A stretch of DNA of 64,000 nt from Gemmatimonadales bacterium. GTDB taxonomy: Bacteria; Gemmatimonadota; Gemmatimonadetes; Gemmatimonadales; GWC2-71-9. Location of the stretch: assembly GCA_050183505.1 (NCBI GenBank), contig JBFXBG010000003.1, positions 13,823-77,822 of the forward strand. The letters run 5' to 3'. Below are positions 1,626 to 62,117 of this stretch, one piece after another. The first letter of the stretch is position 1. Every line of letters starts with the position of its first letter. The notes under the pieces are model-generated. The model was not told the DNA's origin. It saw only the letters and a list, made by a program, of their open reading frames with translations, and searched no databases. The position numbers and the translations under genes are program-made.

Positions 1626-1680
1626 GCGGGCGGGCCTGAACGTCTCAACCCGCTGAAGATCGCCAAGCCACCTGCCCGTT

Positions 1681-1787
1681 CACCGGTCACCGGTCACCCG
1701 TCTCCCGTCTCCCGTCTCCCGTCTCCCGTCTCCCGTCTCCCTTCTCCCTTCTCCCTTCTCACTTCTCACTCTTTCTACTCTCTCCCC
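1681..1787. repeat. 15-unit phase-preserved heptamer array (CACCGGT x2, CACCCGT, CTCCCGT x5, CTCCCTT x3, CTCACTT, CTCACTC ...), single arm
   Basis: Read directly. Runs without a phase break up to the ATG at 1788. Confidence 0.95.
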
Positions 1788-5296: not shown

Positions 5297-5878
5297 ATGA
5301 GCCCGCCTCTTCCCGGACAGCCGGGGCTGATGGCGGACATGCGCACGTGGAGCCGGGGCCGCTGGTGGTCCTGGCGCGCGCTGCTGCTCGCCTGGCTGGC
5401 CTGGACCGGCTGGCACTACCTGCGGGACCCGGAGTACGCCAGCGTTTTCCAGGGAATCGATTTCGGGGTCCACGAACTGGGGCACCTGGTCTTCGGCTTC
5501 GGAGGGGAATGGATCGGCGTCGCCGGCGGGAGCCTGGCCCAGGTGCTGCTCCCGCTCGCCGCCGGCGCCCTGTTCTGGTCGCAGCGCGACTACTTCGGCG
5601 CCGCCGTCTGCGGCGCCTGGGAGGCGTTCAGCCTGTTCGAGCTGTCGCGTTACGTGGCCGATGCCCGGGCCCAGGAGCTGGACCTGGTCAGCTTCAGCGA
5701 GACCGCGATCCACGACTGGAACTACCTCCTGTCCAGCGTGGGCCTGCTGCGGCAGGACGTGGCCATCGCCCACGGGATGCGCATCCTGGCGCTGCTCCTG
5801 CTGGCGGGGAGTCTGTGGTGGGGCGGGTGGCTGTGCCGGGAGATGAGGCGTGGAAGGACCGTGAACGGTGAACGGTGA
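5297..5878 (+). CDS. membrane protein with HExxH motif (putative metalloprotease-like)
   Basis: ATG at 5297 within ORF 5147..5878. Several hydrophobic segments and FGVHELGHLVFGF. The C-terminus (GRTVNGER) and the stop codon are encoded by the GTGAACG repeat array. Confidence 0.55.
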   Translation: MSPPLPGQPGLMADMRTWSRGRWWSWRALLLAWLAWTGWHYLRDPEYASVFQGIDFGVHELGHLVFGFGGEWIGVAGGSLAQVLLPLAAGALFWSQRDYFGAAVCGAWEAFSLFELSRYVADARAQELDLVSFSETAIHDWNYLLSSVGLLRQDVAIAHGMRILALLLLAGSLWWGGWLCREMRRGRTVNGER

Positions 5879-5953
5879 ACGGTGAACGGGACCGGGTCGT
5901 CCTCCGAGACATGGATGCTGGGCCCGTTCACTGTTTACCGTTTACCGTTCACG
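5861..5953. repeat. inverted heptamer arrays (GTGAACG)n ... (CGTTTAC/CGTTCAC)n
   Basis: Left arm gtgaacggtgaacggtgaacggtgaacggg, right arm cccgttcactgtttaccgtttaccgttcacgg, spacer about 31 nt. Lies between convergent genes and supplies both stop codons. Confidence 0.9.
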
Positions 5954-7589
5954 GTTCCCCGCTTTCGATCTTCAGCAGCTCCCGGTAGGCCGGCAGCGTC
6001 AGAAACTCCTCGAACTCCTTCGAGGTGATGAGCCGGTCGAAGATCTGCCGCGCCAGGTCGAACCGTCCGCCCCGATAGCGTTCGTCACCCACCAGACCCC
6101 GGATCCGTTCCAGTTCTTCGGCGGTGACGGCGTGATACAGTTCGGGCGTCACCACCCGGCCGTCGTCCAGCGTGGCCCCGTGCCGCACCCATTGCCAGAC
6201 CTGGCTGCGGGAAATCTCGGCGGTGGCCGCGTCTTCCATCAGGTTGAAGATGGGGACGCAGCCGATGCCGTTGAGCCACGACTCCAGGTACAGGAGCCCG
6301 ACGGTGATGTTATGCCGCAGGCCCTCCTCGGTGATCTTTCCTTCCGGCACCGTCAGCAGGTCGTCGGCGGTGACCTTTACGTCTTCCCGCATGACGCCGA
6401 GCTGATTGGGGCCGGGCATGCCGGCATCGAAGACCTTCCGGGCGATCTCGACCAGGGCGGGATGAGCGACCCAGGTTCCGTCGTGCCCGTCTTTCACTTC
6501 CCGCTCCTTGTCGGCGATCACCTTGCCGATGGCGGTGTCGTTGGCCGCCGGGTCGTTCTTGATCGGAATCTGGGCCGCCATGCCTCCCATCGCGTGCGCA
6601 CCCCGGCGGTGGCACGTCTTGATGACCAGCTGGGTATAGGACCGCAGGAAGTGCCGGTCCATGCCCACGGTGCCCCGGTCCGGAAGCGTGAACTGCGGAT
6701 GGTTCCGGAATTTCTTGATGAAGCTGAAGATGTAGTCCCACCGGCCGCAGTTGAGTCCGACGATGTGCTCTTTCAGCTCGAAGAGGATCTCGTCGAGTTC
6801 GAAGGTCGCCAGGATCGTCTCGATCAGGACCGTGGCCCGGATGGTGCCGACGGGCAGCTTGAGGGCGTCCTGGGCCGCGAGGAAGACGTCATTCCACAGG
6901 CGGGCCTCGAGATGGCTCTCCAGCTTGGGCAGGTAGTAGTACGGGCCGGTCCCCCGCGCCAGCAGTTGCCTGACGTTGTGGAAGAAGTAGAGGCCGAAAT
7001 CGAACAGACTGCCTGCGATCGGCTCGCCGTCGATATGCAGGTGTTCCTCGGACAGGTGCCAGCCGCGGGGACGGGCCATCAGCACGGCGACGGTGTCGTT
7101 CAACCGGTAGGATTTCCCTTCAGGCGAGACGAAGTCGATGGTCCCCGCGATGGCATCGCGCAGGTTGATCTGCCCCTGGACCTGGTTGTCCCAGGTCGGG
7201 GCGTTGGCATCCTCGAAATCGGCCATGAAGACGTTGGCGCCGCTGTTGAGCGCGTTGATGACCATCTTCCGGTCGACCGGGCCGGTGATCTCCACCCGCC
7301 GGTCCTGCAGATCGGCCGGCGCGGGCCGGACTTTCCACTCGGCCCGCCGGATGCCCGCCGTCTCGGGCAGGAAGTCGGGCCGCCAGGTTCCGTCGAGCTG
7401 GCGCTGGAGATCGTGCCGGCGGGCAAGCAGCGCGCGGCGGGTGGGTTCGAACCGCCGGTGCAGTGTGGCAAGAAAATGCAGCGCATCGGGTGTCAGAATA
7501 TCCGAGAAACCCGGCTGCAGCGGCCCCAGGATGTCGATGCCGCTCGCGGGTCTGGTCCTGGCTTTGGTTTTCGCTTTGGATGCTGCCAT
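5949..7589 (-). CDS. aceB: malate synthase A
   Basis: Strong family resemblance along the whole length ([61 protein letters not shown]). Start taken at the ATG at 7589 (MAASKAKTK...). Confidence 0.93.
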
Positions 7590-14976: not shown

Positions 14977-15701
14977 CCCGTCCACTGATCGGTGTCACGG
15001 GGACGATCCGTCGGTTCGAGTCGGCCGACCGGGCCAGCGTGAACGCGGCGTACCTGCGGGCCCTCGCGGCCGCGGGGGCGAACCCGGTCCTGCTGACCCC
15101 GGTCATCCCCACCAGTGACGCGGGCTCGGTGCTGCAGCGGATGCAGGGCCTGGTCATCACCGGCGGACACGACGTCGACCCGTGCTGGTACAACGCCCGG
15201 CCCTCACCCGCGCTGGGAGCGGTGGATCGGGCCCGGGACGCGTTTGATCTGGCGCTGTTCCGCACCGCCCGTTCACTCGGGCTCCCGGTCCTGGGGATTT
15301 GCCGGGGGTTGCAGGTCATCAACGTGGCCCTGGGCGGCACCCTCTGGCAGGACCTCCCCAGCGAAATGCCGGGGCCGGTCAAGCATGATCCGCCGGATAC
15401 CCCCCGGAACACCCGGGTTCACGGCATCCGGGTGGATCCCGCCAGCCGGCTCGCGGCGGCCCTGGGAAGCACCCGGTTCCGGACCAACTCCTTCCACCAC
15501 CAGGCCGTCCGGGAACTGGCCCCGGGCCTCATGGCCACGGCCTGGGCGGACGATGGTGTCATCGAAGGCGTCGAAGGACCCGCGAGCGACCCCTGGCTGC
15601 TCGCGGTTCAGTGGCATCCGGAAGAGTTCGTGGGGGAGCCGGAGTCGGAGGACCAGAGACTGTTTGTCGCTTTGGTGGAGGCAAGTGAACGAATTGGATG
15701 A
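14973..15701 (+). CDS. class I glutamine amidotransferase, gamma-glutamyl-GABA hydrolase (PuuD/peptidase C26)-like
   Basis: GLVITGGHDVDP, PVLGICRGLQVINVALGG and AVQWHPE motifs. The stop TGA lies in the first GGATGATTGG repeat unit. Confidence 0.85.
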   Translation: MTRPLIGVTGTIRRFESADRASVNAAYLRALAAAGANPVLLTPVIPTSDAGSVLQRMQGLVITGGHDVDPCWYNARPSPALGAVDRARDAFDLALFRTARSLGLPVLGICRGLQVINVALGGTLWQDLPSEMPGPVKHDPPDTPRNTRVHGIRVDPASRLAAALGSTRFRTNSFHHQAVRELAPGLMATAWADDGVIEGVEGPASDPWLLAVQWHPEEFVGEPESEDQRLFVALVEASERIG

Positions 15702-15807
15702 TTGGAGGATTTGTGATTGGATGATTGGGTGTAACCTCTGATACGCTTGAGGGTGACCAACCATCCGGGGCCCGACGGGCCCAATCATCCAATCACAAAT
15801 CATCCAA
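15691..15807. repeat. inverted GGATGATTGG-type arrays
   Basis: Left arm ttggatgattggaggatttgtgattggatgattggg. The reverse complement of the right arm is ttggatgatttgtgattggatgattggg, identical except for one 7-nt unit (TGGAGGA). Confidence 0.9.
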
Positions 15808-15810: not shown

Positions 15811-16509
15811 CTAATGTCTGGGGAACCACATCCGTCCGCTCATCGCGTTGAGCCCCTGGCGGAGGGTGCCGAACTGGTCGGCGGCCAGGCGGAACACCTG
15901 ATCCAGCCCGTAGTGGTCGGCCAGGGCGTGGTCGGAGGCCTCGCCGAAGCCCTGCCGGCCGAGGGTATCGTAATAGCTCACGTCGGGCCCGCCCCGGCGG
16001 AGGCGCCGGGCGGCGATGTATTCGGGGTACAGCCCCGCCAGCCAGAGCGAGTAGTTGCCCAGGTGGGCGAGGACCTTGAACCGGCGATCGCCGGAGGTGG
16101 CGGCGAGGTCGGCCAGCAGGTCCACCAGGTAGCGGTGGTACTGGTCATCGTTCCAGTCCACCCGCCAGGCCCGGTCCCGCTTGCCGAAGTTGGCGACGAC
16201 CGCGGCCAGGTAGTAGGCCAGTTCCCGGTCGTCACACCCCAGTTCCAGCAGGGTGTGCCGGACGACGACATAGAAAAACAACGCCTCGGACGGCACCAGC
16301 ATGGAGCGCACCGCCAGCAGCCGTTCCATCAGATCCGGCTCGTCCAGCAACCCGTCCGGACCTTCCGTGGCGAGGCGGTGCTCCGCGGCCCGCCGGCGGG
16401 AGGCGGAGCCTCGGCTCAGCAGCAGGATGACCAGGTGCAGGTCATTGGCATTCAATCGACCACGGGTATCCGCGAGGATCATTGACGACACCTCCACGAA
16501 GTTCGACAC
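15811..16509 (-). CDS. conserved hypothetical protein
   Basis: 232-aa ORF with non-repetitive, balanced composition. No family recognised. The start may be M10 (16482). Confidence 0.55.
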   Translation of the reverse strand: MSNFVEVSSMILADTRGRLNANDLHLVILLLSRGSASRRRAAEHRLATEGPDGLLDEPDLMERLLAVRSMLVPSEALFFYVVVRHTLLELGCDDRELAYYLAAVVANFGKRDRAWRVDWNDDQYHRYLVDLLADLAATSGDRRFKVLAHLGNYSLWLAGLYPEYIAARRLRRGGPDVSYYDTLGRQGFGEASDHALADHYGLDQVFRLAADQFGTLRQGLNAMSGRMWFPRH

Positions 16510-27459: not shown

Positions 27460-28278
27460 ATGCCGTCACGATCCCTCCAGGCGCTCGCGCTCGCTCTCTT
27501 TCTTGCTCCACCAGCTCTCGCGGCCCAGCAGCCGCTGGTGCAGCGCGAGCGCGCCGCCTTCGCTCGCTGGCTGCTGGCATCGGCCAATTCACCCTACGCG
27601 GCGATTGCCCTGGCCCGGGTTGGTGACGGCATTGCGCTGGGCCCGGCCGATGCCGATGTCCCGCTGGCGGCCGCCGGTCCCTGGCGGATCGCCGAGGCGC
27701 CGGGCGGCCTGATCCTGGAAGGGCGGTCCCTGCGGCGGACATTGCCGCGCTACCGGCTCACGACGGTTGGAGCCTACTCGTTCTTTCCCAGCGGCGAACG
27801 CGGGCGGACCAAGGTCACCGTATTCGGCCCGGTTCACGACGCGCACGAACCGGTCTATTTCGAATACGACAGCTCATTCGTGTTCATCGGGCCGCTCCTG
27901 CGGGACGATGCACCCGAACCGGTGCGGATCCTGGCGCTGGACGGGCTGGAGGTCGAAGCCACCCGCGTGGGCAGCGTCCTGGTGCCCGACGGGACCGCCG
28001 GCACCCGGCTCCGGGTCTACCGGGTTCCGGATCCCGGCACCGAAGAGTCCGAGCTCACCATCTACTTTCAGGATGCGACCAACGACGCGGGGACCTATCC
28101 GGCCGGCCGTTTCGTGAGCCTGATCCCGCTGCCCGACGGTCGCTACCGACTGGACTTCAACCGGGCCAGGAATCCGTTCTGCGCCTACAGCACAGTGTAT
28201 CCCTGCCCCGCCCCCTGGCCCGGCAACCGGCTCCAGCGGGGGATCGCGGTGGGGGAGAAGTATGAGGAGAAGGGCTGA
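27460..28278 (+). CDS. DUF1684 domain protein
   Basis: C-terminus FNRARNPFCAYSTVYPCPAPWPGNRL is the DUF1684 signature. Signal peptide MPSRSLQALALALFLAPPALAA. The stop TGA lies in the first CTGAGGA unit. Confidence 0.8.
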   Translation: MPSRSLQALALALFLAPPALAAQQPLVQRERAAFARWLLASANSPYAAIALARVGDGIALGPADADVPLAAAGPWRIAEAPGGLILEGRSLRRTLPRYRLTTVGAYSFFPSGERGRTKVTVFGPVHDAHEPVYFEYDSSFVFIGPLLRDDAPEPVRILALDGLEVEATRVGSVLVPDGTAGTRLRVYRVPDPGTEESELTIYFQDATNDAGTYPAGRFVSLIPLPDGRYRLDFNRARNPFCAYSTVYPCPAPWPGNRLQRGIAVGEKYEEKG

Positions 28279-28364
28279 GGACTGAGGACTGAGGACTGAG
28301 GACTGAGGACTGAGGGCTGAGGGCTGAGGACTGAGAGGTGAGACGTGAGAGGCAAGACGTGAGA
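28274..28364. repeat. 13-unit heptamer array (GCTGAGG, ACTGAGG x5, GCTGAGG x2, ACTGAGA, GGTGAGA, CGTGAGA, GGCAAGA, CGTGAGA), single arm
   Basis: Read directly. Spans from the DUF1684 stop to the TlpA-like start. Confidence 0.95.
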
Positions 28365-29567
28365 AGGCCGGTCGGGTGGTGGTTCGTCGTGGCGGGTGTG
28401 TTCCTGCTGCCCCCCGCCCCGCTGACGGGCCAGTCCGCCCTTGCGGGCCCCTGGCGCGCCGTGCTGGACCTGGCCGGCGGCCCACTGCAATTCTCCCTGC
28501 AGGTGCGGCAGGAAAACGGGCAGTACCGCGGGCGGCTGTGTAACGGGTCGCAGTGCGACGAACTGTCCCGGGTCGCCGTGCTGGGAGACTCGGTCCTGTT
28601 TGATATCGCGGACTACGATGCCCGCATCATGGCTCGCCGGAAGGGGGATTCCCTCGAGGGCGAGTACCGGAACGTCGGCAACCGGGGTCCCCGGGTGATT
28701 CCCTTCCGGGCGGCGCGGGGCCGCTGGCCGGTTGTCCCGGCACCCGGCTGGCTCGCCGGACGATGGGACGGCTGGATGCTGCTGGACGGCCAGACCAGCC
28801 CGCGGGTCTTCGAATTCCGCCGGACCGATGACGGACTGGAAGGCACCATGATTTCCAACACCGGAGACTACGGCAATTTCCGGGGCCACGCCGCGGCCGA
28901 CAGCTTTTCGATGGGCCACTTCGATGGGTCGTTCGTCTACATGGTGACCGGGCGGCTCGACGGCGACACCTTGCGCGGCATCTTCCACGCCGGCCTCCGG
29001 ACGCAGACCCGGTGGATCGCCGTCCGGAGCAGTGGAGCGCCGCATCTGAAGAACCCGGCCGAGATCACCCAGGCGGACACGACCGATGTCTTCCGGTTCA
29101 GCTTCCCCGACCTGAACGGCAACCTGGTGTCCGAGTCCGATCCACGGTTCAAGGGCAAGGTGGTGCTGGTGGATGTCTTCGGTTCCTGGTGCCCGACCTG
29201 CCACGACGCGGCGCCGGCCCTGGTGGATCTCTGGAACAAATTCCACGGGCGGGGACTGGAGATTGTGGGTCTGGCCTACGAGGTCACCGGCGACAGCGCG
29301 GTCGACGCCCGCCAGGTGCGCCGGTATCGTGACAAGTTCGGGATCCGGTTTCCCCTGCTCCTCGCCGGGATCAACGACACCGAAGCCGCCGCGGCCACCT
29401 TGCCGCAACTGGCCGGATTCACGTCGTTCCCCACGACCATCTTCATCGGACGGGACGGCAAGGTGAAACGGATCCACGCCGGTTTCTACGGTCCCGCCAC
29501 CGGAGCCCAGCACGAACGGCTGGTGAGGCAGATGGAGGATGAGGTGGAACGGCTGCTGGTGGAGTGA
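28338..29567 (+). CDS. TlpA/redoxin-family thiol:disulfide oxidoreductase with N-terminal extra domain
   Basis: VVLVDVFGSWCPTCHDAAP thioredoxin-fold motif. The start (GTG at 28338 or 28359) lies inside the heptamer array. Signal-like WWFVVAGVFLLPPAPLTG. Confidence 0.8.
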   Translation: MRRERQDVRRPVGWWFVVAGVFLLPPAPLTGQSALAGPWRAVLDLAGGPLQFSLQVRQENGQYRGRLCNGSQCDELSRVAVLGDSVLFDIADYDARIMARRKGDSLEGEYRNVGNRGPRVIPFRAARGRWPVVPAPGWLAGRWDGWMLLDGQTSPRVFEFRRTDDGLEGTMISNTGDYGNFRGHAAADSFSMGHFDGSFVYMVTGRLDGDTLRGIFHAGLRTQTRWIAVRSSGAPHLKNPAEITQADTTDVFRFSFPDLNGNLVSESDPRFKGKVVLVDVFGSWCPTCHDAAPALVDLWNKFHGRGLEIVGLAYEVTGDSAVDARQVRRYRDKFGIRFPLLLAGINDTEAAAATLPQLAGFTSFPTTIFIGRDGKVKRIHAGFYGPATGAQHERLVRQMEDEVERLLVE

Positions 29568-29576: not shown

Positions 29577-29715
29577 AAGACTGGATGATTGGGGATTGGA
29601 TGATTGGGGGGTGGTTTGAGGATCACCGGGCCTCGCCGGCCGCTGCCGAAGCCCTGGGCCACGGCCAATCATCCAATCTTCAAATCATCCAGTCCTCCAA
29701 TCCCCAATCATCCCA
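29577..29715. repeat. GATTGG-family hairpin element, copy A (arms plus conserved core)
   Basis: Left arm ctggatgattggggattggatgattgggggg. Core tttgaggatcaccgggcc...gccgctgccg.agccc. Right arm ccaatcatccaatcttcaaatcatccagtcctccaatccccaatcatcc. Confidence 0.9.
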
Positions 29716-32838: not shown

Positions 32839-34107
32839 ATGGCCACCAAAGTCGTCATGGAGGCGCTCTCGCCCACTATGGAAGAAGGGCGTCTCGTCGA
32901 ATGGAAGAAAAAGGAAGGCGACAAGGTCGCCGCCGGTGACGTGCTGGCCGAGGTCGAAACCGACAAGGCCGTCATGGAGCTGGTCGCCCGTGCCGACGGC
33001 ACCATGCTGAAGCAGCTCATCGGAGAGGGCACCACGGTCCCGGTGTCCAGCCTGGTGGCGGTGCTGGGGGAGCCGGGGGAGGACATCTCAGGGCTGGTCG
33101 AGGCGACGGCGAAGACGGCGAAGGCGGACAAGACGGAGAAGGCGGCCAAGGCGGCCGGGGCGGCCACGACGGCCACGACGGCCAAGGCGGCCACGACGGC
33201 GACGACGGCCAAGGCGGCCGGGACGGGCAGGCCGGCCGAGGTGGTTCCGGCGGCGGATGGCCGGGTGAAGGCCTCTCCGCTGGCGCGGAAGATCGCCGCC
33301 GAGCGGGGACTGGACCTGCGAAGCGTCCACGGCTCCGGCCCCGAAGGCCGGGTCATCCGGCGGGACCTGGAGACCCTGGCGTCGATTCCGTCCACGGGCG
33401 CTTCGATGGTGGCGCCGTCCGCCCGCGGGTTCACCGATGTGCCGCTTACCCAGATCCGCAAGACGATCGCCCGTCGTCTGGCGCAGTCCATCGGCCCGAT
33501 CCCGACGTTCTACCTGACGGCCGAGTACGACATGGAACGGGCCTGGGACGCGCGGCAGGCGCTGAAGGCGCTGGGCCCCGAAGGCGACATCTCGTTCAAC
33601 GACATCATCATCAAGGCGGTGGCGACCGCGCTGCGGCAGCATCCCCAGTGCAACGCCTGGTGGCAGGACGACCATATCCGGGTCTGGCATGAGGTCCATG
33701 TCGGCATGGCGGTCGCCATCGAGGACGGGCTCATCACGCCGGTCATCCGCGACGCCGACCTGAAATCGCTGCGGCAGATTTCCACCGAGGCGAAGGACCT
33801 GGCCGCCCGCGGCCGGGAACGGCGGCTGGCCCCGGAGGAATACACCGGCAGCACGTTCTCGGTCTCGAACCTCGGCATGTTCGGGATCGACGACTTCACG
33901 GCGGTCATCAATCCGCCGGAGGCGGGAATCCTGGCCATCGGCCAGATCATCCCCAAGCCGGTCGTCGTGGACGGCGCTGCGGTGGTGCGGCGCCGGATGC
34001 GGGTCACCATGTCGTGCGACCACCGGGTGATCGACGGCGCCACCGGGGCCCAGTTCCTGAAGACGCTGCGGACGCTGCTGGAGAATCCGTTGGCGATGGT
34101 CTGGTAG
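32839..34107 (+). CDS. pdhC: dihydrolipoamide acyltransferase (E2)
   Basis: Lipoyl domain EVETDKAVMEL, E3-binding ASPLARKIAAERGLDL, catalytic SCDHRVIDGA. The linker contains a 27-nt tandem duplication. Confidence 0.92.
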   Translation: MATKVVMEALSPTMEEGRLVEWKKKEGDKVAAGDVLAEVETDKAVMELVARADGTMLKQLIGEGTTVPVSSLVAVLGEPGEDISGLVEATAKTAKADKTEKAAKAAGAATTATTAKAATTATTAKAAGTGRPAEVVPAADGRVKASPLARKIAAERGLDLRSVHGSGPEGRVIRRDLETLASIPSTGASMVAPSARGFTDVPLTQIRKTIARRLAQSIGPIPTFYLTAEYDMERAWDARQALKALGPEGDISFNDIIIKAVATALRQHPQCNAWWQDDHIRVWHEVHVGMAVAIEDGLITPVIRDADLKSLRQISTEAKDLAARGRERRLAPEEYTGSTFSVSNLGMFGIDDFTAVINPPEAGILAIGQIIPKPVVVDGAAVVRRRMRVTMSCDHRVIDGATGAQFLKTLRTLLENPLAMVW

Positions 34108-34138
34108 GGCGGAAAGACGGAAAGACGGAAAGACTCCG
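34108..34138. repeat. tandem 8-mer array GGAAAGAC x3, single arm
   Basis: gggc ggaaagac ggaaagac ggaaagac tccgggg, directly after the E2 stop. Confidence 0.85.
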
Positions 34139-35562: not shown

Positions 35563-35738
35563 GGATTGGAGGATTGGTGTTGGTGATTGGAGATTGGATG
35601 ATTGGTGATTGGATGATTGGGGGTGTTTTGAGGATCACCGGGCCCTGCCAGCCGCTGCCGTAGCCCAGGGGCGCGGCCAATCATCCAATCATCCAATCCC
35701 CAATCATCCAATCCTTCAATCCTCCAATCCTCCCTCTC
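35562..35738. repeat. GATTGG-family hairpin element, copy B
   Basis: Left arm has about 9 GGNGATT units, a core about 89 percent identical to copy A, and a right arm of CCAATCATCC/CCAATCC units. Fills the lpdA-stop to next-ATG gap exactly. Confidence 0.9.
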
Positions 35739-39770: not shown

Positions 39771-39951
39771 GAGAGAAGTGAGAGGTGAGAAGTGAGAAGT
39801 GAGAGGGATACCGGGTATTGATCGCAGGTATGGAATTCTGCCATCTCACGCATACCACGCATACAAGGGGAATCTACCCCGTCCGGCCCGGGTGGCCATA
39901 CCCCCGGGCCTCCTAACTTCTCGCTTCTCGCTTCCTCACTTGCCCTCCCCC
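39771..39951. repeat. inverted heptamer arrays (GAGAGAA GTGAGAG GTGAGAA GTGAGAA GTGAGAG) ... (ACTTCTC GCTTCTC GCTTCCT CACTTGC CCTCCCC)
   Basis: Read directly. About 100-nt spacer. In the divergent gap between the M20 peptidase and the TPR gene. Confidence 0.85.
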
Positions 39952-41072: not shown

Positions 41073-41102
41073 CGGCGGCGCGACCGCCGGGTCGTGATTC
41101 AC

Positions 41103-41615
41103 ATGATCGAAGTCACCCTCTCCGACATCACTCTCCAGCCCCTCGATGCGATCGTCAACGCGGCCAACACCACGCTGCTTGGCGGCGGCGGGGTTGATGG
41201 CGCGATTCACCGCGCGGCCGGCCCCGAACTGCTTGAGGAGTGCCGCGGGCTCGGCGGCTGCCCGACCGGCGAAGCCCGCATCACCCGGGGCTACCGGCTT
41301 CCGGCCCGCTATGTGATCCACACCGTCGGGCCGGTCTGGAACGGCGGCCGGCGCGGCGAGGCCGGGTTGCTGGCCTCCTGCTACCGCAACTCCCTCGCTC
41401 TCGCCATCGGACACGGCCTCCGCTCCATCGCGTTCCCTTCCATCAGCACCGGCGCGTACCGCTACCCGCTGGAGCAGGCCGTGGAGATCGCGGTTGGCAC
41501 GGTGAACGATATGCTCCGAAGCCCGGGGACGATCGAACTGGTGCGGTTTGTGTGCTTCGCGGAGCGGGATCGGGAAGTGTATGAGAGGGAGTTGAGGGGT
41601 CGGGGACGGCCATGA
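41103..41615 (+). CDS. macro-domain O-acetyl-ADP-ribose deacetylase (YmdB-like)
   Basis: [26 protein letters not shown] and [15 protein letters not shown]. Alternative GTG start at 41094. Confidence 0.88.
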
Positions 41616-41638
41616 CGGCCGGGGCGGCCACGACGGCC
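41603..41638. repeat. tandem 9-mer array NNGACGGCC x4
   Basis: gggacggcc atgacggcc ggggcggcc acgacggcc. Contains the macro-domain gene stop. Confidence 0.75.
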
Positions 41639-41721
41639 GGGATCCCCATTCCAACCTTCCGGCCGGACTCGCTATCTCACCCGTATCCGCGATTCCCTCA
41701 ACGCGTTACGGAGATGATCCC

Positions 41722-42771
41722 ATGAAGACCAGTTTTCTCGGGGCAGCGTTGCTGCTGGCCGTGGCCGTTCCCTCGCTCCAGGCCCAGGAGTCCTACACGG
41801 TCTCCGGCAGCCGGGTCGCGATCTACAACCTGGCCGGTCAGGTCACGGTCGAGCCCGGCAGCGGCAGCGGCGTGCAGGTCATGGTGACGACCGGGGGCGG
41901 CGACCGGGCCCGGCTCAAGGTGGAGACCGGTTCGATCGGAGACCGGGAGACGCTCCGGGTGATCTACCCGGATGACCGGATCGTGTACAACGCCCGCCGC
42001 TGTGAAGGCCGGTCCGACATGTACGTCCGGGACGACGGCACCTTCGGCAACGGCTGGGACCGGGGCCGGGGCCGGGGCCATCGGGTGACCGTCGCCTGCA
42101 GCGGCGGCGGCACTGAAGCCTGGGCCGATCTCCGGATCCGGGTACCGTCCGGCCAGCGGGTGTCGATCAACCTGGGTGTGGGCCGGATCGAGGCGTCCAA
42201 TCTGAATGGCGACATCGACCTCGACACCGCTTCGGGCGACATCACGGCGAGATCGGTCCGCGGCAGCCTGAGCCTGGACACCGGATCAGGTAACGCGGAG
42301 GCCAGCGACGTCGACGGCGACCTCAGCATCGACACCGGCTCGGGAGACGTCCGGGTGACCGGCATGAAGAACGGCGAGCTCAGCATCGACACCGGCTCCG
42401 GCAGCGTCACCGCGTCGGCAATCGAAGCCACCGAAGTCAGCGTCGACACCGGCTCGGGAGACGTCAACCTGGACGGGGTGAGCGCGCGATCGATCTCGCT
42501 CGACACCGGCAGCGGTGAGATCACGGTCGGCCTCCGGAGCGTCGCCGTCGACCTCAACGCCGATACCGGCTCCGGCGACGTCACCCTCTTCGTCCCCGAC
42601 GGTTTCGGGGCCGAACTCAGGATCGAGACCTCCAGCGGGGACATCGACACCGAGGTCCCCATTCAGTTGCGGCGGAAGGACCGGGACGAACTCAGCGGCC
42701 GGATCGGCGACGGCCGCGGGCGGGTGGAGATCGAGACCGGGAGCGGGGACGTGAAGATCAGAAAGCAGTGA
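41722..42771 (+). CDS. DUF4097 beta-strand-repeat (adhesin-like) protein
   Basis: Signal peptide, then about 8 repeats of the DTGSGD(V/I) unit. The stop TGA lies in the first GTGAGCA unit. Confidence 0.8.
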   Translation: MKTSFLGAALLLAVAVPSLQAQESYTVSGSRVAIYNLAGQVTVEPGSGSGVQVMVTTGGGDRARLKVETGSIGDRETLRVIYPDDRIVYNARRCEGRSDMYVRDDGTFGNGWDRGRGRGHRVTVACSGGGTEAWADLRIRVPSGQRVSINLGVGRIEASNLNGDIDLDTASGDITARSVRGSLSLDTGSGNAEASDVDGDLSIDTGSGDVRVTGMKNGELSIDTGSGSVTASAIEATEVSVDTGSGDVNLDGVSARSISLDTGSGEITVGLRSVAVDLNADTGSGDVTLFVPDGFGAELRIETSSGDIDTEVPIQLRRKDRDELSGRIGDGRGRVEIETGSGDVKIRKQ

Positions 42772-42925
42772 GCAGTAAGAAGTGAGAAGTAAGAAGGGGG
42801 TGGCAGTCCGCTCAGGCGGTATCTGCCGCCCCCTTCTCACTTCTCACTTCTCACTGCTCACTGCTCCCTGCTCACTTCTCACTGCTCACTGCTCACCGCT
42901 CCCATCCTCTCTCCCATCTTCTCAA
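42761..42925. repeat. inverted heptamer arrays (GTGAGCA GTAAGAA GTGAGAA GTAAGAA) ... 13 x (CTCACTT/CTCACTG/...) with nested GC hairpin
   Basis: Left arm 5 units, right arm about 13 units. Centre gggggtggcagtccgctcaggcggtatctgccgccccc is a nested stem-loop. Confidence 0.92.
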
Positions 42926-43967
42926 ACGCCTCCTCCCCTTGCACCCCTTCCATCAGCTGCTTCAGTGCGGCCACGCTCGAGTCCACCCGGGCCCCGTGCT
43001 GCTGGTACCACTCCTCGAACAGATCCAGATGAGACCGGTAGATCCTCGCGGCAATGATCCGGGCGTTGTTGACGGGGCGGGCGGACATCGGGCCGATCCG
43101 GTAGGTCCGGAACTCAGGCGCCAGCTCCTGCAGCCGGTCCCGGGCCCAGGCACCGGCCTCGGCACGCCCCGAATCCACCGCAGCGCTGTCCGGCGCGGCC
43201 CGGTAGAGTGAATCCAGCCGATCGGCGAGCCGGGTATAGAACGCTCCCAGCAACACCTCGTCCAGCCACCGGCCGGCGGCCCGGCCGGCGTTGGCGGTGT
43301 CCCCCCGCTGCCGGAAGAACGCCTCCGCACCCCGGTAGCCCACCAGCTGCGCATAGCTCTCATTGAAGGGAATGGCACTCTTCACCCACAGGGTGTTGTG
43401 GGCGATCTCATGCAGGACCAGCGCCACCAGTTCCATCGAGTCCCGGCTCATGGCGGTGGAGAGCAGCGGATCGTTGAACCAGCCCAGCGTGGAGAACGCG
43501 GCCGAGGGACGGAGGTAGACGTCGTAACCCTGCCGCTCCATCCGGGCGGCGGTACGCCGGGCCATCTTCGTGTCGAAGAATCCCTTGTAGGGAATCCGGC
43601 CGACGATGGGATATTTCCAGGTATAGGCGCAGAGGCAGTTTCTGGGCGAAGCCGAGAGCACCAGCAGCAGGGTGTCCCGGCCGACATCGGTGTACATGGT
43701 GTAGGTGTCCTTCGCCTCCAGGCCCAGGTCCGCGGCGAAGTTCCGGGCATCCAGGACGAGGCGGAGATACCCGCGGGTCCCGGGGTCGACCTTTTCGTCC
43801 CGCACCATTCTGTCGATCGGGCGCCGGTGGGTGAGGATCCAGGTTTCCTCCATTCCGGCTCGGCTCAGGTAGCGTACGTCCTCGCTCGCGACGTACGCCG
43901 TACCGTAGCCGAGGATTAGGGCGCCGACGATGATCAGGAACATCTTCAGGACCTTGCCTTTTTTCAT
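42879..43967 (-). CDS. putative aminopeptidase (DUF2265/Aminopep family, HExxH)
   Basis: ATG at 43967 (MKKGKVLKMFLIIVGALILG). LVLHEIAHNTLW...FNESYA. The last codons (AVSSEQ) and the stop are encoded by the repeat array. Confidence 0.75.
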   Translation of the reverse strand: MKKGKVLKMFLIIVGALILGYGTAYVASEDVRYLSRAGMEETWILTHRRPIDRMVRDEKVDPGTRGYLRLVLDARNFAADLGLEAKDTYTMYTDVGRDTLLLVLSASPRNCLCAYTWKYPIVGRIPYKGFFDTKMARRTAARMERQGYDVYLRPSAAFSTLGWFNDPLLSTAMSRDSMELVALVLHEIAHNTLWVKSAIPFNESYAQLVGYRGAEAFFRQRGDTANAGRAAGRWLDEVLLGAFYTRLADRLDSLYRAAPDSAAVDSGRAEAGAWARDRLQELAPEFRTYRIGPMSARPVNNARIIAARIYRSHLDLFEEWYQQHGARVDSSVAALKQLMEGVQGEEAFEKMGERMGAVSSEQ

Positions 43968-43999
43968 GGTGTCTCTGGTGATTGATCCGGCGGGAGGCT

Positions 44000-44938
44000 T
44001 CAGATCCTGAACCGGACACCGACCCGGTGGACCTGCCCGCCCAGCCCGGTGCGTTTCTGAAAGGCGTAATCGATGCCGACCCCGCCGAGGACCACGCCCC
44101 CCCCCCAGCTCCATTCGGACTGCTCGGTGAAGGGGGGCTGCCCGCCATGGCCGGCCCGGACCACGACCCCGACACCGCTCACCACCGCGCCGGCCTCGAG
44201 CCCACCGACCGTGCGCCGGTCCTGCCCCTCGGTCCAGATCACCTCCACGGTGCCCAGCAGCCGTGCCGTGGTCTGCGGATCCACGAGATTGAGCATGTAC
44301 CCGAACCGGTATCGGGTGGGCAGGGTGAGCCGCCCGCCGGTGATCCGCTGGTTGTTGATGTTCTGTACGCTGAACGCGATCGAGGTGATGTCGAACAGCG
44401 CGATGGCCAGCCCCAGGTCGCTCGTGGTGGCACGGTTCACCTTGCCCGTCGTGTCCTCGGTCGACACGTACTTGAGCGAGAAACCGAGCGAGAAGATCCC
44501 CCGGCGCACGCCGCCGGTCCCGACCCAGAGCAGATTGTCCCGGACGGCGGAGCTGTCGCTGAACTTCAGGTAGTTGCCCCCGACGCCAAGGTTGAAGGGC
44601 CCGAGCCGGGTGCCAAGCGCGGCCGTGGCGTGGAACGTGTTGTCCGGATAGGAGTGGTAGGAGGCCTCGAGGCTGGCGTATCGGAGCGTGGCCAGGCCGG
44701 CGGGATTGCGGAACACGGCGCCGGCGTCTCCCAGGAGCGCCACCCCGGCGCCGGCAAGGCCCGCGCTCCGGACCGAGGCGGGCAGAAGCAGTATCAGCGG
44801 AGGATCGGGCTGCTGGGCCGCGAGTGGTCGACTCGGCGCAGCGCTGCCGGCAAGAAGGCAGAGCCCCAGGACAAAGAACTTGGCCGCCGGCCCTTCGATC
44901 CGCCGGCCCCCCAGCCCGTCAGCCCGGCAGCGCCTCAC
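44000..44938 (-). CDS. PorV/PorQ-like outer-membrane beta-barrel
   Basis: GTG at 44938 overlaps the upstream stop (GTGA). Signal-like FFVLGLCLLAGSAAP. SAGLAGAGVALLGDAGAVFRNPAGLA motif, and an alternating beta-strand pattern that ends in F/I. Confidence 0.65.
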   Translation of the reverse strand: MRRCRADGLGGRRIEGPAAKFFVLGLCLLAGSAAPSRPLAAQQPDPPLILLLPASVRSAGLAGAGVALLGDAGAVFRNPAGLATLRYASLEASYHSYPDNTFHATAALGTRLGPFNLGVGGNYLKFSDSSAVRDNLLWVGTGGVRRGIFSLGFSLKYVSTEDTTGKVNRATTSDLGLAIALFDITSIAFSVQNINNQRITGGRLTLPTRYRFGYMLNLVDPQTTARLLGTVEVIWTEGQDRRTVGGLEAGAVVSGVGVVVRAGHGGQPPFTEQSEWSWGGGVVLGGVGIDYAFQKRTGLGGQVHRVGVRFRI

Positions 44939-46578: not shown

Positions 46579-46637
46579 GGATGCCTCGGCTTGGGCAGGA
46601 AGGTCAGATGACGTAAGATAAGGCGTAGCAACAGGTT

Positions 46638-46666: not shown

Positions 46667-46672
46667 CCCTCG

Positions 46673-51870: not shown

Positions 51871-51940
51871 GAGAAGTGAGAAGTGAGAAGTGAGAAGGGA
51901 GAAGGGAGAAGGGAGAAGTGAGAAGTGAGAAGGAGGGGGG
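51869..51940. repeat. 10-unit heptamer array (GAGAGAA, GTGAGAA x3, GGGAGAA x3, GTGAGAA x2, GGAGGGG)
   Basis: Read directly. Starts in the accA stop codon. A degenerate complementary arm lies at about 52048..52091, abutting the PSP1 ATG. Confidence 0.92.
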
Positions 51941-53129: not shown

Positions 53130-53142
53130 AACCACGACCGAC

Positions 53143-53212
53143 GAGGGCCGAGGACTGAGCCGCCACGCGTAACGAGTGAAGGACGGAGGTGGGGACTCGG
53201 TCCTCAGCCCTC
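53143..53212. repeat. short inverted CTGAGGA-family hairpin
   Basis: gagggccgaggactgag ... ctcggtcctcagccctc (reverse complement gagggctgaggaccgag). Between PSP1 and metG. Confidence 0.75.
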
Positions 53213-53242
53213 GGTCCCGGGTCGTTCTTTCTCCCGAGAACC

Positions 53243-54972: not shown

Positions 54973-55890
54973 ATGTCCAAACGCCGCTGGACTTTCGTCA
55001 TCGTGCCCCCGGGCTCCGAAGCCTCGCGTGTCGTCGAGGTGTCGCAGACCGTGCTCAAGGCGGTCGGGGCCGCGGCCCTGGTGTTTGCCCTGCTCGCCAC
55101 CGGGCTGGGTTACTCCACCTATTCCCGCTCGCTGCACCTCAGCCATACCGACCAGCTCGAACGCGAGAATCAGCAGATCAACGCCGCCCTGCTCCAGATG
55201 AGCGGCCGGCTGGATACTCTGACCGACACCCTGTCGGTCATCGCGCAGCGTGACAGCCGGGTCCGCCTGCTGGCCAATCTCGAACCGGTGGATCCGCAGG
55301 TGCTCGAAGCCGGTATCGGCGGCCCGGCCCGCGGCCCGGCTGACGTGCCCCGGAGCCAGGCCGAACGCAAGGCCGCCAGCCTGCGGGTGGATTTGAACGC
55401 GCTGCTCCGGAAGGCCAACATCCTGGCCGCCTCCTTCAAGGAGACGGCGGACAGTCTGGAGCAGCACTCCAGGCGGCTGGCGTCGATTCCGTCGATCATG
55501 CCGACCCAGGGCTGGCTCTCCAGCGCCTTTTCCTCGATGCGGCAGCATCCGATCCTGCACATTGCGCGGCCCCATGAAGGCATCGACGTCACCGCCGACA
55601 TGGGCGCCCCGATCGAAGCGCCGGCCGCCGGTGTGGTCATCGCCGCCCGCTGGGAAAACGGCTACGGCAACACGCTCGAGATCGACCACGGCTACGGTAT
55701 CGTGACCCGCTTTGCCCACGCCTCCAAGCTGCTGGTCCACAAGGGCGAGCGCGTCACCCGGGGGCAGAAGATCGCCCTGGTGGGCAACACCGGGCTCGCC
55801 ACCGGCCCGCACCTGCACTATGAGGTGCACGTCAACGGCCGCCCGGTGGATCCGCTCAAGTACGTGCTGCCGGATGCGATCGTGGACTGA
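54973..55890 (+). CDS. M23-family peptidoglycan metallo-endopeptidase
   Basis: N-terminal TM, coiled-coil, then HEGIDV...GNTGLATGPHLHYEVHVNG. Confidence 0.9.
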   Translation: MSKRRWTFVIVPPGSEASRVVEVSQTVLKAVGAAALVFALLATGLGYSTYSRSLHLSHTDQLERENQQINAALLQMSGRLDTLTDTLSVIAQRDSRVRLLANLEPVDPQVLEAGIGGPARGPADVPRSQAERKAASLRVDLNALLRKANILAASFKETADSLEQHSRRLASIPSIMPTQGWLSSAFSSMRQHPILHIARPHEGIDVTADMGAPIEAPAAGVVIAARWENGYGNTLEIDHGYGIVTRFAHASKLLVHKGERVTRGQKIALVGNTGLATGPHLHYEVHVNGRPVDPLKYVLPDAIVD

Positions 55891-55985
55891 ACGGCGGTGA
55901 GCGGGAAGCAGTGAACGGTGAACGGGGCCGGTGTCCACATCCCGATGGACAAACCGGCCCCGTTTACCGTTCACCGTTCACTGTG
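55887..55985. repeat. GTGAACG-family hairpin element with GGGGCCGG/GTCCA inner clamp
   Basis: ctgaacg..cagtgaa cggtgaa cgggg ccgg t gtcca catcccga tggac aaa ccgg ccccg tttaccg ttcaccg ttcactg. Confidence 0.9.
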
Positions 55986-58881: not shown

Positions 58882-58888
58882 TGGAAGG

Positions 58889-58945
58889 GCTGAGGACTGA
58901 GGACTGAGGACTGAGGGCTGAGCGGCTGAGGACTGAGGGCTGAGC
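58889..58945. repeat. 8-unit heptamer array (GCTGAGG, ACTGAGG x3, GCTGAGC, GCTGAGG, ACTGAGG, GCTGAGC)
   Basis: Read directly. One 1-nt phase slip at 58924. Confidence 0.9.
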
Positions 58946-58979
58946 GGCTTTCCGAAGTCTGGCCCCTCCCTTCCCACCG

Positions 58980-59678: not shown

Positions 59679-59913
59679 GGGAGAGGTTGAGAGGTTGAAG
59701 AGTCGAGAAGGCGAGAAGTCGAGAAGTCGAGAAGGCCAGAAGTCGAGTGGTCACGGAATCCCGGTCCGGCTCCTTCACTCGCAAGAGGGAGCCGCTGACC
59801 GTCGGACTGCTCGACTCCTCGACCTCTCGACTTCTCGACCTCTCGACTTCACTACCTCCCGACTTCTCGACTTCTCTGCCTCCCGACTTCTCGACCTCTC
59901 GACCTCTCGACTC
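59678..59913. repeat. inverted 8-mer arrays (GAAGTCGA-type x8) ... (CTTCTCGA/CCTCTCGA-type x13)
   Basis: gaggttga gaggttga agagtcga gaaggcga gaagtcga gaagtcga ..., then tcctcgac ctctcgac ttctcgac ... Lies between convergent dsbA-like and CPBP genes. Confidence 0.92.
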
Positions 59914-60736: not shown

Positions 60737-62035
60737 ATGCCCCGCACGTCCCTGCTGTACCGGATCGGCCTGGGGATGAGCCTGCCGCTTGTCCCCGTGG
60801 CCGGTCTGTTCGACGCCAAGATCAGGCGGAGCCACCCGGCCCGCCGTCGCGCGCTGCGGGAGTTCCAGCAGTGGGGTGCCACCAGCCGGGACCCGGCCAG
60901 GCCGCTCATCTGGTTCCACGCCCCGTCGGTAGGGGAGGGCCTGCAGGCTCGTCCGGTACTGGCCCGGCTCCGGGCCCGGCACCCGGACTGGCAGTTCGCC
61001 TACACCTTTTTCAGCCCGTCCGCCGAGGGGTTTGCCCGGAAGTCCGGGGCCGACGTGTCGGGCTACATCCCGTACGACACCGCCCGGATGGCCAAACTGC
61101 TGCTGGATGCGCTCCGGCCGTCGGCGCTTGTTTTCGCCAAGCTGGACCTGTGGCCGGAACTGGCCACCCGGGCGGCGGCCCGCGGTATCCCCCCGGGACT
61201 CATCGCCGGAACGGTCCGTCCCCGCAGCAGCCGGCTCCGATGGCCGGCGCGGCAGCTGCTCCGCCCGGGCTACGCTGCCCTGTCCCTCGCCGGTGCCATC
61301 TCGGACGCCGATCGGGCCCGGCTGAGCGAACTCGGCTGCCGGCCGGAGACGCTTCGTGTCCTGGGCGACCCGCGCTTCGACAGCGTGATAGACGTGGTCC
61401 GCGCCGCCCCCGAGGACGATCCCCTGAAGGCATTCGGCCACGGTGCCCCGACGATGGTCGCCGGTTCAACCTGGCCGGGGGATGAGGCCGTCCTGCTGGA
61501 AGCGTTCGCCCGGCTGCATGTGCGCCGGCCCACGGCGCGACTGATCCTGGTGCCGCACGAACCGACCCCGGCCCATCTGGCGCAGATCGACCGCCTGGCG
61601 GCCCGGTTCGGCCTGTCGGCCCCGGTGCGGTCCAGTGCGGCCGGGGGCCCCGTTCCCCTGCTGGTGGTGGATCAGATCGGGATACTGGCCCGCCTGTACG
61701 GAGCCGGCACCATGGCCTTCGTGGGCGGCGGGTTCCACGGCCGGGGCCTGCATTCGGTGCTGGAACCGGCGGCCTGGGGCATCCCCAGCGTGTTCGGGCC
61801 CCGCTGGGAAGAGAGCCGGGACGCGTCGCTGCTGCTGGAGGCCGGCGGAGCCGAAGCGCTGGCCGAACTCGGCGCGGTCGAGGCGGCCGGTGTGCTGGAG
61901 AATCTCTGGGAGGACTGGATCGTCAACGAGATCCGGCGGAAGGCGCAGGGCCGCAAGGCGTACGGGGTGGTGCAGCAGGGCCTGGGTGCGGCGGACCGCA
62001 CGGCCGATGCGGTGGAGACGCTGGTGATCGGGTGA
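60737..62035 (+). CDS. waaA: 3-deoxy-D-manno-octulosonic acid (Kdo) transferase
   Basis: IWFHAPSVGEG...FSPSAE...GGGFHGRGLHSVLEPAAWG. The stop TGA lies in the first repeat unit. Confidence 0.88.
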   Translation: MPRTSLLYRIGLGMSLPLVPVAGLFDAKIRRSHPARRRALREFQQWGATSRDPARPLIWFHAPSVGEGLQARPVLARLRARHPDWQFAYTFFSPSAEGFARKSGADVSGYIPYDTARMAKLLLDALRPSALVFAKLDLWPELATRAAARGIPPGLIAGTVRPRSSRLRWPARQLLRPGYAALSLAGAISDADRARLSELGCRPETLRVLGDPRFDSVIDVVRAAPEDDPLKAFGHGAPTMVAGSTWPGDEAVLLEAFARLHVRRPTARLILVPHEPTPAHLAQIDRLAARFGLSAPVRSSAAGGPVPLLVVDQIGILARLYGAGTMAFVGGGFHGRGLHSVLEPAAWGIPSVFGPRWEESRDASLLLEAGGAEALAELGAVEAAGVLENLWEDWIVNEIRRKAQGRKAYGVVQQGLGAADRTADAVETLVIG

Positions 62036-62117
62036 GCAGTAAACGGTGCACGGTAAACGGGGCCGGTCTGTCCATTGAGATGAGGACGCCGGCCCCGTTT
62101 ACCGTCACCGCTCAACG
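62031..62117. repeat. GTGAACG-family hairpin element with GGGGCCGG/GTCC inner clamp
   Basis: ggtgagc agtaaac ggtgcac ggtaaac gggg ccgg tct gtcc attgagatga ggac g ccgg cccc gtttacc gtcaccg. Confidence 0.9.

Follow-up and report, generated by a model that had tools for sequence, protein, structure and literature searches.

A 64,000-nucleotide stretch of DNA from a Gemmatimonadales bacterium (GenBank assembly GCA_050183505.1, contig JBFXBG010000003.1, positions 13,823 to 77,822 of the forward strand; hereafter the window, numbered from its first nucleotide) carries tandem arrays of 7- and 8-nt units at or directly behind the stop codons of many of its genes, among them a focal array at 28271..28335 between a DUF1684 gene and a Redoxin gene. 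On balance we regard these arrays as hypervariable repeats of the short tandemly repeated repetitive (STRR) or long simple sequence repeat (LSSR) type that are tied to gene 3' ends, where the signals of a gene junction held within the units would make an array lying flush against coding sequence harmless. Among described repeats, cyanobacterial STRR and the heptamers of Xanthomonas and Nostoc come closest. Donation of stop codons by the arrays is real and concerns at most six residues.

Gene and array statistics were collected from 879 kb of Gemmatimonadales DNA, consisting of the window and 56 Gemmatimonadota loci (individual loci are referred to below by L numbers). An array was defined as a tandem repeat of period 7 or 8 with at least three copies, and 104 arrays were present in this set, 23 of them in the window. 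Codon-usage calling gave 62 genes in the window, of which approximately 16 have a stop codon that lies in an array or no more than 10 nt away from it.

Arrays follow gene stops with the purine-rich strand in sense

The gene end nearest to an array was a 3' end in 72 of 104 cases, at a median distance of 1.5 nt, and a 5' end in 16, at a median distance of 33.5 nt; 88 arrays were located at gene ends or in intergenic regions and 16 deep in predicted open reading frames (ORFs). When each element was re-placed at random inside its own intergenic region in 5000 simulations, 19.4±2.3 elements fell no more than 5 nt from a stop (simulated maximum 28) compared with 34 of 59 observed, upholding the observation in a preliminary description of this DNA that arrays are located at stop codons. 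Within co-directional gaps 28 elements were nearer the stop and seven nearer the start, and elements were present in 24 of the 71 convergent gaps, in 35 of the 326 co-directional ones and in 5 of the 102 divergent ones. The sense strand following the stop was purine-rich in 39 of 47 elements and pyrimidine-rich in six (p=5e-7), whilst arrays nearest to a 5' end were purine-rich in sense in only 4 of 16 cases and mostly pyrimidine-rich. The underlying polarity is thus a purine-rich sense strand after the stop, stop-free units included.

A stop trinucleotide was found only in sense in 27 elements and only in antisense in three (p=8e-6), the corresponding numbers of arrays outside the window being 20 and 3. 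Amongst stop-hugging heptamers 29 of 38 contained a stop compared with an expectation of 16.3 for letter-shuffled units (P<5e-5), the values for octamers at array level being 5 of 14 and 3.3; at element level stop-bearing units were present in 25 of 33 heptamers and 4 of 14 octamers (Fisher p=0.004). The stop types in the units (TGA 24, TAG 6, TAA 4) parallel genomic stop usage, TGA being the main stop (48 of the 62 window genes), even though TGA and TAG have equal base composition. The tetranucleotide GTGA was present in 33 of 54 TGA-bearing units against a background of approximately 35%. GTGA and ATGA, the latter contained in GATTGGAT, are classic start/stop overlap motifs, and TGAGGA combines a stop with a Shine-Dalgarno (SD)-like motif. 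However, 15 of 47 stop-hugging elements, with units such as CGGAAAGA, AAGGCGA, GACGCAAA and others, contain no stop and begin 0–5 nt after the stop of the gene. As stop-free units also hug stops, which the preliminary description had overlooked, this placement is more than a by-product of three-frame stops. That description had also taken 8-mers to be stop-free, which is correct for AGTCGAGA and CGGAAAGA but not for the 7/8-mer GATTGGAT, in which both TGA and ATGA occur.

The heptamer arithmetic by which TGA appears in all three frames was verified on the focal array, where the TGAs at 28276, 28283 and 28290 lie one in each reading frame. Across the Gemmatimonadales set the gene stop was the first, second or third in-array stop in 8, 8 and 7 cases, indicating that all frames are used and lending no support in this lineage to the earlier rule that genes end on the first TGA. 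Nine plus-strand genes had been cited for that rule and all nine stops are real and lie at arrays; those at 15699, 28276, 42769, 55888 (in a degenerate first unit) and 62033 are indeed first TGAs, whereas the stop at 5876 comes third among the TGAs of its array, those at 35560 and 51868 abut an array and fall outside any clean unit, and 22099 is at a repeat amounting to a mini-array of only two units. On the minus strand the stops of malate synthase (5949–5951, in the outermost unit) and the aminopeptidase (42879–42881) were correctly placed within repeats and that of CPBP (59912–59914) at the edge of an 8-mer array, and the repeat-encoded tails TVNGER (stop 5876) and AVSSEQ (aminopeptidase) were likewise found as described. 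Three ATGs had been described as abutting arrays; the one at 35739 is close (5 nt), but that at 1788 lies approximately 20 nt beyond its array and that at 22245 has no array adjacent. Two further stop-hugging arrays had been missed, at 34107/34110 and 58881/58886 (stop/array start).

The focal array at the DUF1684/Redoxin junction

The focal array, identified with Tandem Repeats Finder (TRF) and by inspection of the sequence, is one-armed and consists of 9.3 plus-strand copies of AGGACTG (equivalent to CTGAGGA) with 94% matches at 28271..28335, its purine-rich strand being the sense strand for both flanking genes. It passes into a degenerate tail at 28332..28364 (+) composed of GTGAGAC, GTGAGAG, GCAAGAC and GTGAGAA units. 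This tail holds the SD-like motif GAGAGG, and the two GTG codons that are candidate starts of the following gene lie in it as well. Upstream, the DUF1684 gene (27460..28278, +) ends on TGA 28276–28278, the first TGA of the array, with its final codons AAG GGC within the first unit. Downstream, the Redoxin/AhpC-TSA (TlpA-like) gene (28359..29567, +) has its annotated GTG start in the last array unit, an alternative in-frame start at GTG 28338 also lying within the array. The arrangement of one array holding the DUF1684 stop and both candidate starts, as first described, was therefore confirmed on the sequence. A contig of assembly GCA_050248135.1 that matches this part of the window at 99.985% identity is annotated in the same way, with DUF1684 at 27460..28278 and Redoxin from GTG 28359. 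GAGAGG is positioned 6 nt ahead of GTG 28359 and the resulting N-terminus, MRRPVGWWFVVAGVFLL..., is signal-peptide-like; GTG 28359 is probably the true start, and donation of a start codon by the focal array to the Redoxin gene is plausible from these features. Folding prediction for the focal array gave a weak -25 kcal/mol in the form of an implausible ladder of 2-bp helices, and the array is treated here as unstructured.

The best DUF1684 orthologues in the genome collection are 50–56% identical, and by this protein the window is assigned to Gemmatimonadales. At approximately 50 orthologous loci the TlpA-like start overlaps or abuts the DUF1684 stop (TGATG), indicating that the ancestral DUF1684/TlpA-like junction had no spacer, whereas the window lineage carries an 80-nt array precisely at this junction. 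Three lineages bear different arrays here: the window, L025, in which GTGAACG units run from the stop onward, and L054 together with L019, in which an AGGTGAG/CCTCTCA palindrome is present, the tail ...KVRGER being encoded by its units. For the TlpA-like gene of L025 a plausible start is offered solely by the GTG in the final unit, with a signal-peptide-like N-terminus VIAINRRALGLGVVLL...; judged by its sequence, this putative start independently parallels GTG 28359. In two close relatives from two other samples (L064 and L065) the array is identical in place, at the same DUF1684 stop, and the gene ends ...EKD TGA GGGCTGAGGG; the last codon is GAC in these relatives and GGC in the window, indicating that this codon is a unit variant. 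The tails of DUF1684 orthologues past the residues GERY differ by 0–15 amino acids. At three Gemmatimonadales loci (L015, L034 and L053, from approximately 10001 onward) DUF1684 and the TlpA-like redoxin form a single ORF with approximately 380 extra codons, a fusion which suggests that the two proteins may work together.

Variation between strains shifts stop codons

The palindrome at 42759–42903 of the window, between the convergent DUF4097 and aminopeptidase genes, is also present between the same genes in a strain whose aminopeptidase is 97% identical (L062, 2500–2640). In L062 the aminopeptidase-proximal arm is 36 nt shorter (approximately five units) and the distal arm 28 nt longer (approximately four units) than in the window. 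The aminopeptidase accordingly ends MGE* on the first TGA in L062 and MGAVSSEQ* on the third in the window, whilst for the DUF4097 partner the first TGA is the stop in both. Arms thus comprise approximately 9 + 4 units in the window and approximately 4 + 9 in L062, with total length roughly kept and a co-linear core; inversion of the whole element as the cause of the exchanged arm lengths was considered and rejected, the central core being co-linear in the alignment. The earlier proposal that ORFs are truncated or extended by arrays is borne out by this aminopeptidase tail in kind, but the observed coding effect of an array change is limited to six C-terminal residues or fewer. Units also drift in concert at orthologous sites, CGAGTCA and AGTCGCC being found in L004 and L005.

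C-terminal tails of both DUF1684 and the aminopeptidase vary in length among array-free relatives, and the orthologues thus give no fixed ancestral stop position by which the TGA could be dated relative to the array. For most flanking genes 0–11 residues separate the end of the Pfam domain from the stop (approximately 20 for Peptidase C26): domains end at residue 185 of 185 in LemA, 347 of 349 in DUF4097, 238 of 241 in CPBP, 362 of 367 in AccA and 579 of 587 in malate synthase. As the domains run close to the stops, the arrays begin at natural C-termini.

Short-read contigs often end in arrays or in the loop of a hairpin (L064 at 2498–2514, L065 at 1465–1487, and the end of L063; also L084, L085, L086, L097 and L129). 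Arrays of this kind break assemblies and will be under-represented in metagenome-assembled genomes.

Paired arrays form predicted hairpins between convergent genes

Most arrays are hairpin arms between convergent genes, which the preliminary description had not recognized. They form inverted pairs in which a purine-rich left arm (GTGAACG, GATTGGAT, GTGAGAA, AGTCGAGA etc.) is followed, across a GC-rich core, by its reverse complement, and predicted folding energies of the paired arrays are -55 to -100 kcal/mol with z-scores, computed against dinucleotide shuffles, of -6 to -13. Strong predicted hairpins were present in all nine convergent gaps of the window, six or seven of them made of tandem units. 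The 5' arm was the purine-rich, TGA-bearing arm in 9 of 9 pairs, so that genes entering from either side meet the same sense sequence. The one-armed minority (28271, 34110, 51871 and 58886) is found in co-directional gaps, purine-rich in sense and essentially unstructured.

Hairpin terminators without a U-tract occur in high-GC bacteria, and intrinsic terminators can be bidirectional. Paired arrays resemble intrinsic terminators in their predicted GC-rich stem-loop directly after the stop and in their symmetry between convergent genes, but have no T-run, and their stems of 30–60 bp of repeats are far longer than ordinary ones. A terminator scan of the window from 42600 to 62500 gave 11 sites with a hairpin and T-run compared with 9.0 in shuffles, none of them at array hairpins, and the genome seems from its sequence to lack classical intrinsic terminators. 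From the folding predictions we infer that a paired array may act as a U-tract-less terminator or as a structure protecting RNA 3' ends.

Further arrays in the window

The array pair at 5861..5961 consists of four GTGAACG units, a core and five CCGTTCA units (-80.5 kcal/mol, z -11.3) and lies between the convergent gene 5147–5878 and malate synthase, with both stops in the arms. A second GTGAACG palindrome, with the core GGGGCCGG...CCGGCCCC, is located at 55888..55981 between convergent Peptidase M23 and LemA genes (-69 kcal/mol, z -7.9). Palindromes of the GATTGGAT type were found at 15693..15807, between the convergent Peptidase C26 gene (stop 15699) and gene 15811–16509 (z -6.3), at 29582..29713, 14 nt downstream of the Redoxin stop, and at 35564..35733, where the palindrome fills the gap from the lipoamide dehydrogenase stop (35560) to ATG 35739. 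The last two have in common a conserved 57-nt non-repeat core (29609–29665 and 35621–35677, 89% identity), whilst other family members have cores that are unrelated. This core of a dispersed element reads GGGTGTTTTGAGGATCACCGGGCC...GCCGCTGCCG.AGCCC and has no Rfam match, and it was not found in the other fetched Gemmatimonadales loci. More generally, no part of the window matched Rfam 15 at the gathering threshold.

The 42759..42903 palindrome of GTGAGAA and GTGAGCA units (DUF4097 stop 42769, aminopeptidase stop 42879) gave folding energies of -91 and -101 kcal/mol with z of approximately -13, and a GTGAGCA/GTAAACG palindrome at 62033..62112 (z -6.6) separates the convergent Kdo transferase gene (stop 62033) and gene 62126–62548. 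A predicted folding energy of -141 kcal/mol was obtained for a stop-free 8-mer palindrome at 59681..59912, with 6 copies of AGTCGAGA and 13.5 of GACTTCTC, between a thioredoxin-like gene and CPBP (stop 59912). Two further palindromes are a GAGAAGT/CTTCTCG pair in a divergent intergenic region (39773..39934) and a short one of GAGGACT units, belonging to the same family as the focal array (53140..53220).

One-armed arrays on the plus strand comprise three copies of the stop-free, purine-rich CGGAAAGA at 34110..34134, 2 nt after the TAG (34107) of E2 in a 2-oxoacid dehydrogenase operon, 8.9 copies of GAGAAGT at 51871..51932, beginning at the AccA stop (51868) and unstructured at 0 kcal/mol, and eight copies of AGGACTG at 58886..58949, 4 nt after TGA 58879–58881. 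The only sense-pyrimidine array of the window, at 1676..1767 (+), contains CCGGTCA, 9.7 copies of GTCTCCC and then CTTCTCC/CTTCTCA units; it lies upstream of ATG 1788, belongs to the opposite orientation class, being C-rich on the 5' side of the mRNA, and contains no SD-like motif.

Other repeats were noted in the window. A 9-mer family (GACGGCCAN / GGCGGCCAN) occurs at 33105–33237, 41601–41641 and 60656–60698 in both coding and non-coding settings: in-frame in the linker of the E2 acyltransferase, where it encodes TAKAATTATTAK..., at the end of gene 41094–41615, and in a divergent intergenic region. A coding CCGCCC-rich tract with periods of 6, 18 and 42 (57283–57445, in the minus-strand gene 57273–57968) and a coding repeat with 57-nt period and 2.7 copies within the DUF4097 gene (42313–42466) are unrelated to the intergenic arrays.

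(CTGAGGA)n arrays in metagenome contigs

A metagenome scan for exact (CTGAGGA)4 returned at least 120 contigs, and 80 loci were read (L066–L145), with GC contents ranging from 36 to 71%. Amongst 88 arrays in these loci a same-strand gene stop lay within 13 nt upstream in approximately 22–25 cases and the antisense arrangement was seen in seven. For the period-7/8 arrays identified by TRF in the 80 loci, the in-frame stop was the first, second or third TGA in 16, 5 and 3 cases (p=0.002), a preference for the first TGA that held in this perfect-CTGAGGA set alone, and the stop lay just upstream of the array in a further 16; arrays also start 2–13 nt past TAA or TAG stops. Five upstream ORFs examined with Pfam were real genes stopping at domain boundaries; their products are FolB, glutamine synthetase, an aminotransferase and two ATPases, of the histidine-kinase and T2SSE types. 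The locus L082 probably derives from Chloroflexota according to the names of 58–63% identical homologues, although one of these is labelled Burkholderiales and the assignment is a hint only.

The heptamer is thus common to very different bacteria, and (CTGAGGA)n often occurs beside other unit types, for example GTGATGA in L141 and GTAAAAC in L124. In L132 a small gene has a TCCTCAG array before its start (174–201) and a CTGAGGA array after its stop (413–447), so that the 5' and 3' ends of the mRNA would be complementary.

Comparison with described repeats

Cyanobacterial STRR are short tandemly repeated repetitive heptamers of intergenic regions. The arrays described here share with STRR and with heptanucleotide simple sequence repeats (SSRs) a tandem 7-nt unit in at least three copies, a mainly non-coding location at many loci, several unit types per genome, and copy-number polymorphism, as seen between the window and L062. 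Phase-variable repeats lie in an ORF or promoter and switch expression on and off; arrays in the window lie at or after stops. An excess of heptanucleotides among long prokaryote SSRs was reported by Mrazek et al. (2007), as cited in PMC4679880 and PMC4692102, and a proposed origin, given in the summaries of these two papers, is polymerase slippage with a 7-nt footprint. The accessible portions of the STRR reports, unlike the present analysis, contain no treatment of stop codons or hairpin arms.

Xanthomonas GGGAATC and Nostoc GGGGA(T/C)T heptamers are located within 50 bp of a stop or overlap it with the G-rich strand in sense, have the C-rich strand upstream of ORFs and occur also as inverted pairs (Rehm et al. 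2015; PMC4692102). They are present at many intergenic loci, enriched between co-oriented and scarce between divergent ORFs, and transcripts tend to begin or finish at them; their units contain no stop codon and have been studied as G-quadruplex formers (PMC4692102). Gemmatimonadales arrays are similarly G/purine-rich in sense after stops and C-rich before starts. They differ in that one genome has many unit families, in that most heptamers carry TGA, TAA or TAG, in that the majority of elements form long predicted hairpins in convergent gaps, and in the host phylum, Gemmatimonadota.

TAACTGA direct repeats were described in marine Beggiatoaceae, cyanobacteria and Bacteroidetes (MacGregor 2015; PMC4679880). 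In forward orientation they contain stops in three frames, overlap ORF ends by up to approximately 18 nt and overlap upstream stops in 13 cases; they occur between cistrons, often with no recognisable SD, and a translational role was proposed (PMC4679880). Sets comprise 2–6 copies, mostly directly upstream of starts, with one indirect repeat among 170 sets (PMC4679880). The window heptamers likewise present stops in three frames. Their units, however, are not TAACTGA (CTGAGGA, GTGAACG, GTGAGAA, GATTGGAT and others), they adjoin stops rather than starts (72 at 3' ends compared with 16 at 5' ends) and they often form hairpin arms.

Repetitive extragenic palindromic (REP) sequences, bacterial interspersed mosaic elements (BIME) and REPINs are dispersed extragenic palindromes just past proteobacterial genes, often convergent ones, which act as mRNA 3' stabilisers or terminators. 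REP arms are unique sequence and are tied to RAYT transposases, whereas the array arms described here are tandem 7–8-mers. No Pfam match to a transposase was found among the approximately 20 array-flanking window ORFs scanned, and neither a RAYT gene nor a conserved REP head was seen in the 64 kb available. The literature search found no description of repeats such as these in Gemmatimonadota. Three-frame stops (TAACTGA, PMC4679880) and stop-proximal, sense G-rich heptamers (PMC4692102) have already been published; new here are the host phylum Gemmatimonadota, a hairpin architecture involving many unit families, the enrichment of stops and GTGA, and the shift of a stop between strains.

Interpretation and alternative explanations

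The arrangement favoured here is as follows. An array starts at a stop or a few nucleotides past it, with the purine-rich strand as sense of the upstream gene; between convergent genes it is mirrored across a GC-rich core such that a transcript from either side could fold into a 30–60-bp hairpin, whilst operon junctions such as the focal one have the purine-rich arm alone. Since unit lengths cannot be divided by three and a stop trinucleotide, usually as part of GTGA, is present in most heptamers, an array offers a stop in each frame every 21 nt, and GTGA units offer a GTG in every frame too. Unit number shifts quickly between strains, presumably by slippage, with the upstream ORF always ending no more than six codons into the array, and the downstream ORF could start from the GTG or SD-like motif of the last units. 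Donation of stops and, apparently on occasion, of starts is most likely a condition for the persistence of an array, rather than the reason that arrays exist; this condition could operate through a filter of purifying selection, through origin of arrays from junction motifs (GTGA, ATGA, TGAGGA), or both.

Several observations weigh against this interpretation of stop-tied, locally slipping repeats. Octamers hug stops with no enrichment of stops in their units, which a general stop filter does not predict, and part of the stop enrichment may be peculiar to a single superfamily of GTGAR-type units. Genes outside the window are our own codon-usage calls and not curated annotation. T-run terminators are absent at the hairpins, and if termination occurs there it would be atypical. 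Finally, identical unit families and conserved cores at several loci point to copying or mobility beside local slippage.

This last observation leads to the alternative that the arrays are mobile or copy-paste elements, resembling REPs, REPINs or miniature inverted-repeat transposable elements, which insert beside stops and of which the tandem units are the arms. Recurrence of unit families at 3–6 window loci, the 89%-identical 57-nt core common to two GATTGGAT elements and the GGGGCCGG...CCGGCCCC core common to GTGAACG elements could be explained in this way, as could three different arrays at one orthologous junction and (CTGAGGA)n in contigs of 36–71% GC, one probably from Chloroflexota. 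Set against these are the missing transposase or RAYT match among the scanned flanking ORFs, one-armed arrays with no inverted ends, arm lengths that differ by whole units between close strains in a slippage-like manner, and the concerted unit drift at orthologous sites in L004 and L005 (CGAGTCA and AGTCGCC). Insertion of mobile elements as the general explanation is therefore considered unlikely, if the least improbable of the alternatives.

It is quite unlikely that the arrays are adaptive fail-safe cassettes, selected to catch ribosomes that read through a TGA or have shifted frame before they unwind the hairpin or reach the next gene. Such a role would fit the enrichment of sense-strand stops beyond base composition with its 27:3 polarity, and the use of all frames in a genome where TGA is the main stop (48/62) and an in-frame backup TGA follows seven codons on. 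A tolerance filter, or an origin of arrays at the stop, accounts for the same enrichment equally well, however, and approximately one-third of stop-hugging elements (15/47) contain no stop, octamers not being enriched. Arrays also occur in divergent regions and, reversed, upstream of starts, and a length of 60–100 nt far exceeds the need for a backup stop.

A more speculative proposal, which we consider doubtful, is that these are 'junction-safe' microsatellites actively seeded at stops, by a process coupled to the boundary of translation or transcription or to a dedicated recombinase, and working as orientation-specific 3'-end modules. The parts of such a module, each equally doubtful, would be a three-frame stop with a GTG/SD re-initiation pad, a paired hairpin terminator and an antisense C-rich tract for Rho loading. 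If this were true, CTGAGGA, which joins a stop with an SD-like motif, would have spread or been reinvented across phyla for gene-junction signals.

Arrays might alternatively be regulatory sites in RNA, with SD-like purine units (GAGGA, GGTGA, GGGAG) holding the 30S subunit or an RNA-binding protein, or their C-rich complement loading Rho; versions of this idea are tuning of re-initiation on the downstream cistron and silencing of antisense transcription. One-armed sense arrays in operon junctions (28271, 34110, 51871, 58886), the unstructured nature of pure purine arrays, the correctly spaced SD-like motif before GTG 28359 and the translational role proposed for TAACTGA repeats (PMC4679880) are compatible with such sites, but the units vary too much from locus to locus and from genome to genome to fit a single binding specificity, and most arrays are paired between convergent genes with no downstream cistron, making this explanation very improbable. 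An artefact, whether spurious ORFs cut by three-frame stops or assembly errors, is effectively refuted: short-read contigs do often break inside arrays, but the flanking ORFs are real with Pfam domains running to their C-termini, the arrays recur in assemblies and samples obtained independently, and stop-free arrays hug stops too.

Significance

In approximately one-quarter of window genes the stop codon, and sometimes the last 1–6 residues, is set by a hypervariable repeat, and one window gene probably draws its start codon from an array. Starts and ends of array-adjacent genes are strain-specific and easily miscalled in annotation. A simple repeat whose unit carries junction signals can sit directly against coding sequence. 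In this little-studied high-GC phylum, which seems to lack canonical T-run terminators, paired arrays are candidates for the terminators that are missing. The same rules apply to (CTGAGGA)n in many environmental bacteria, and the findings may thus be transferable widely.

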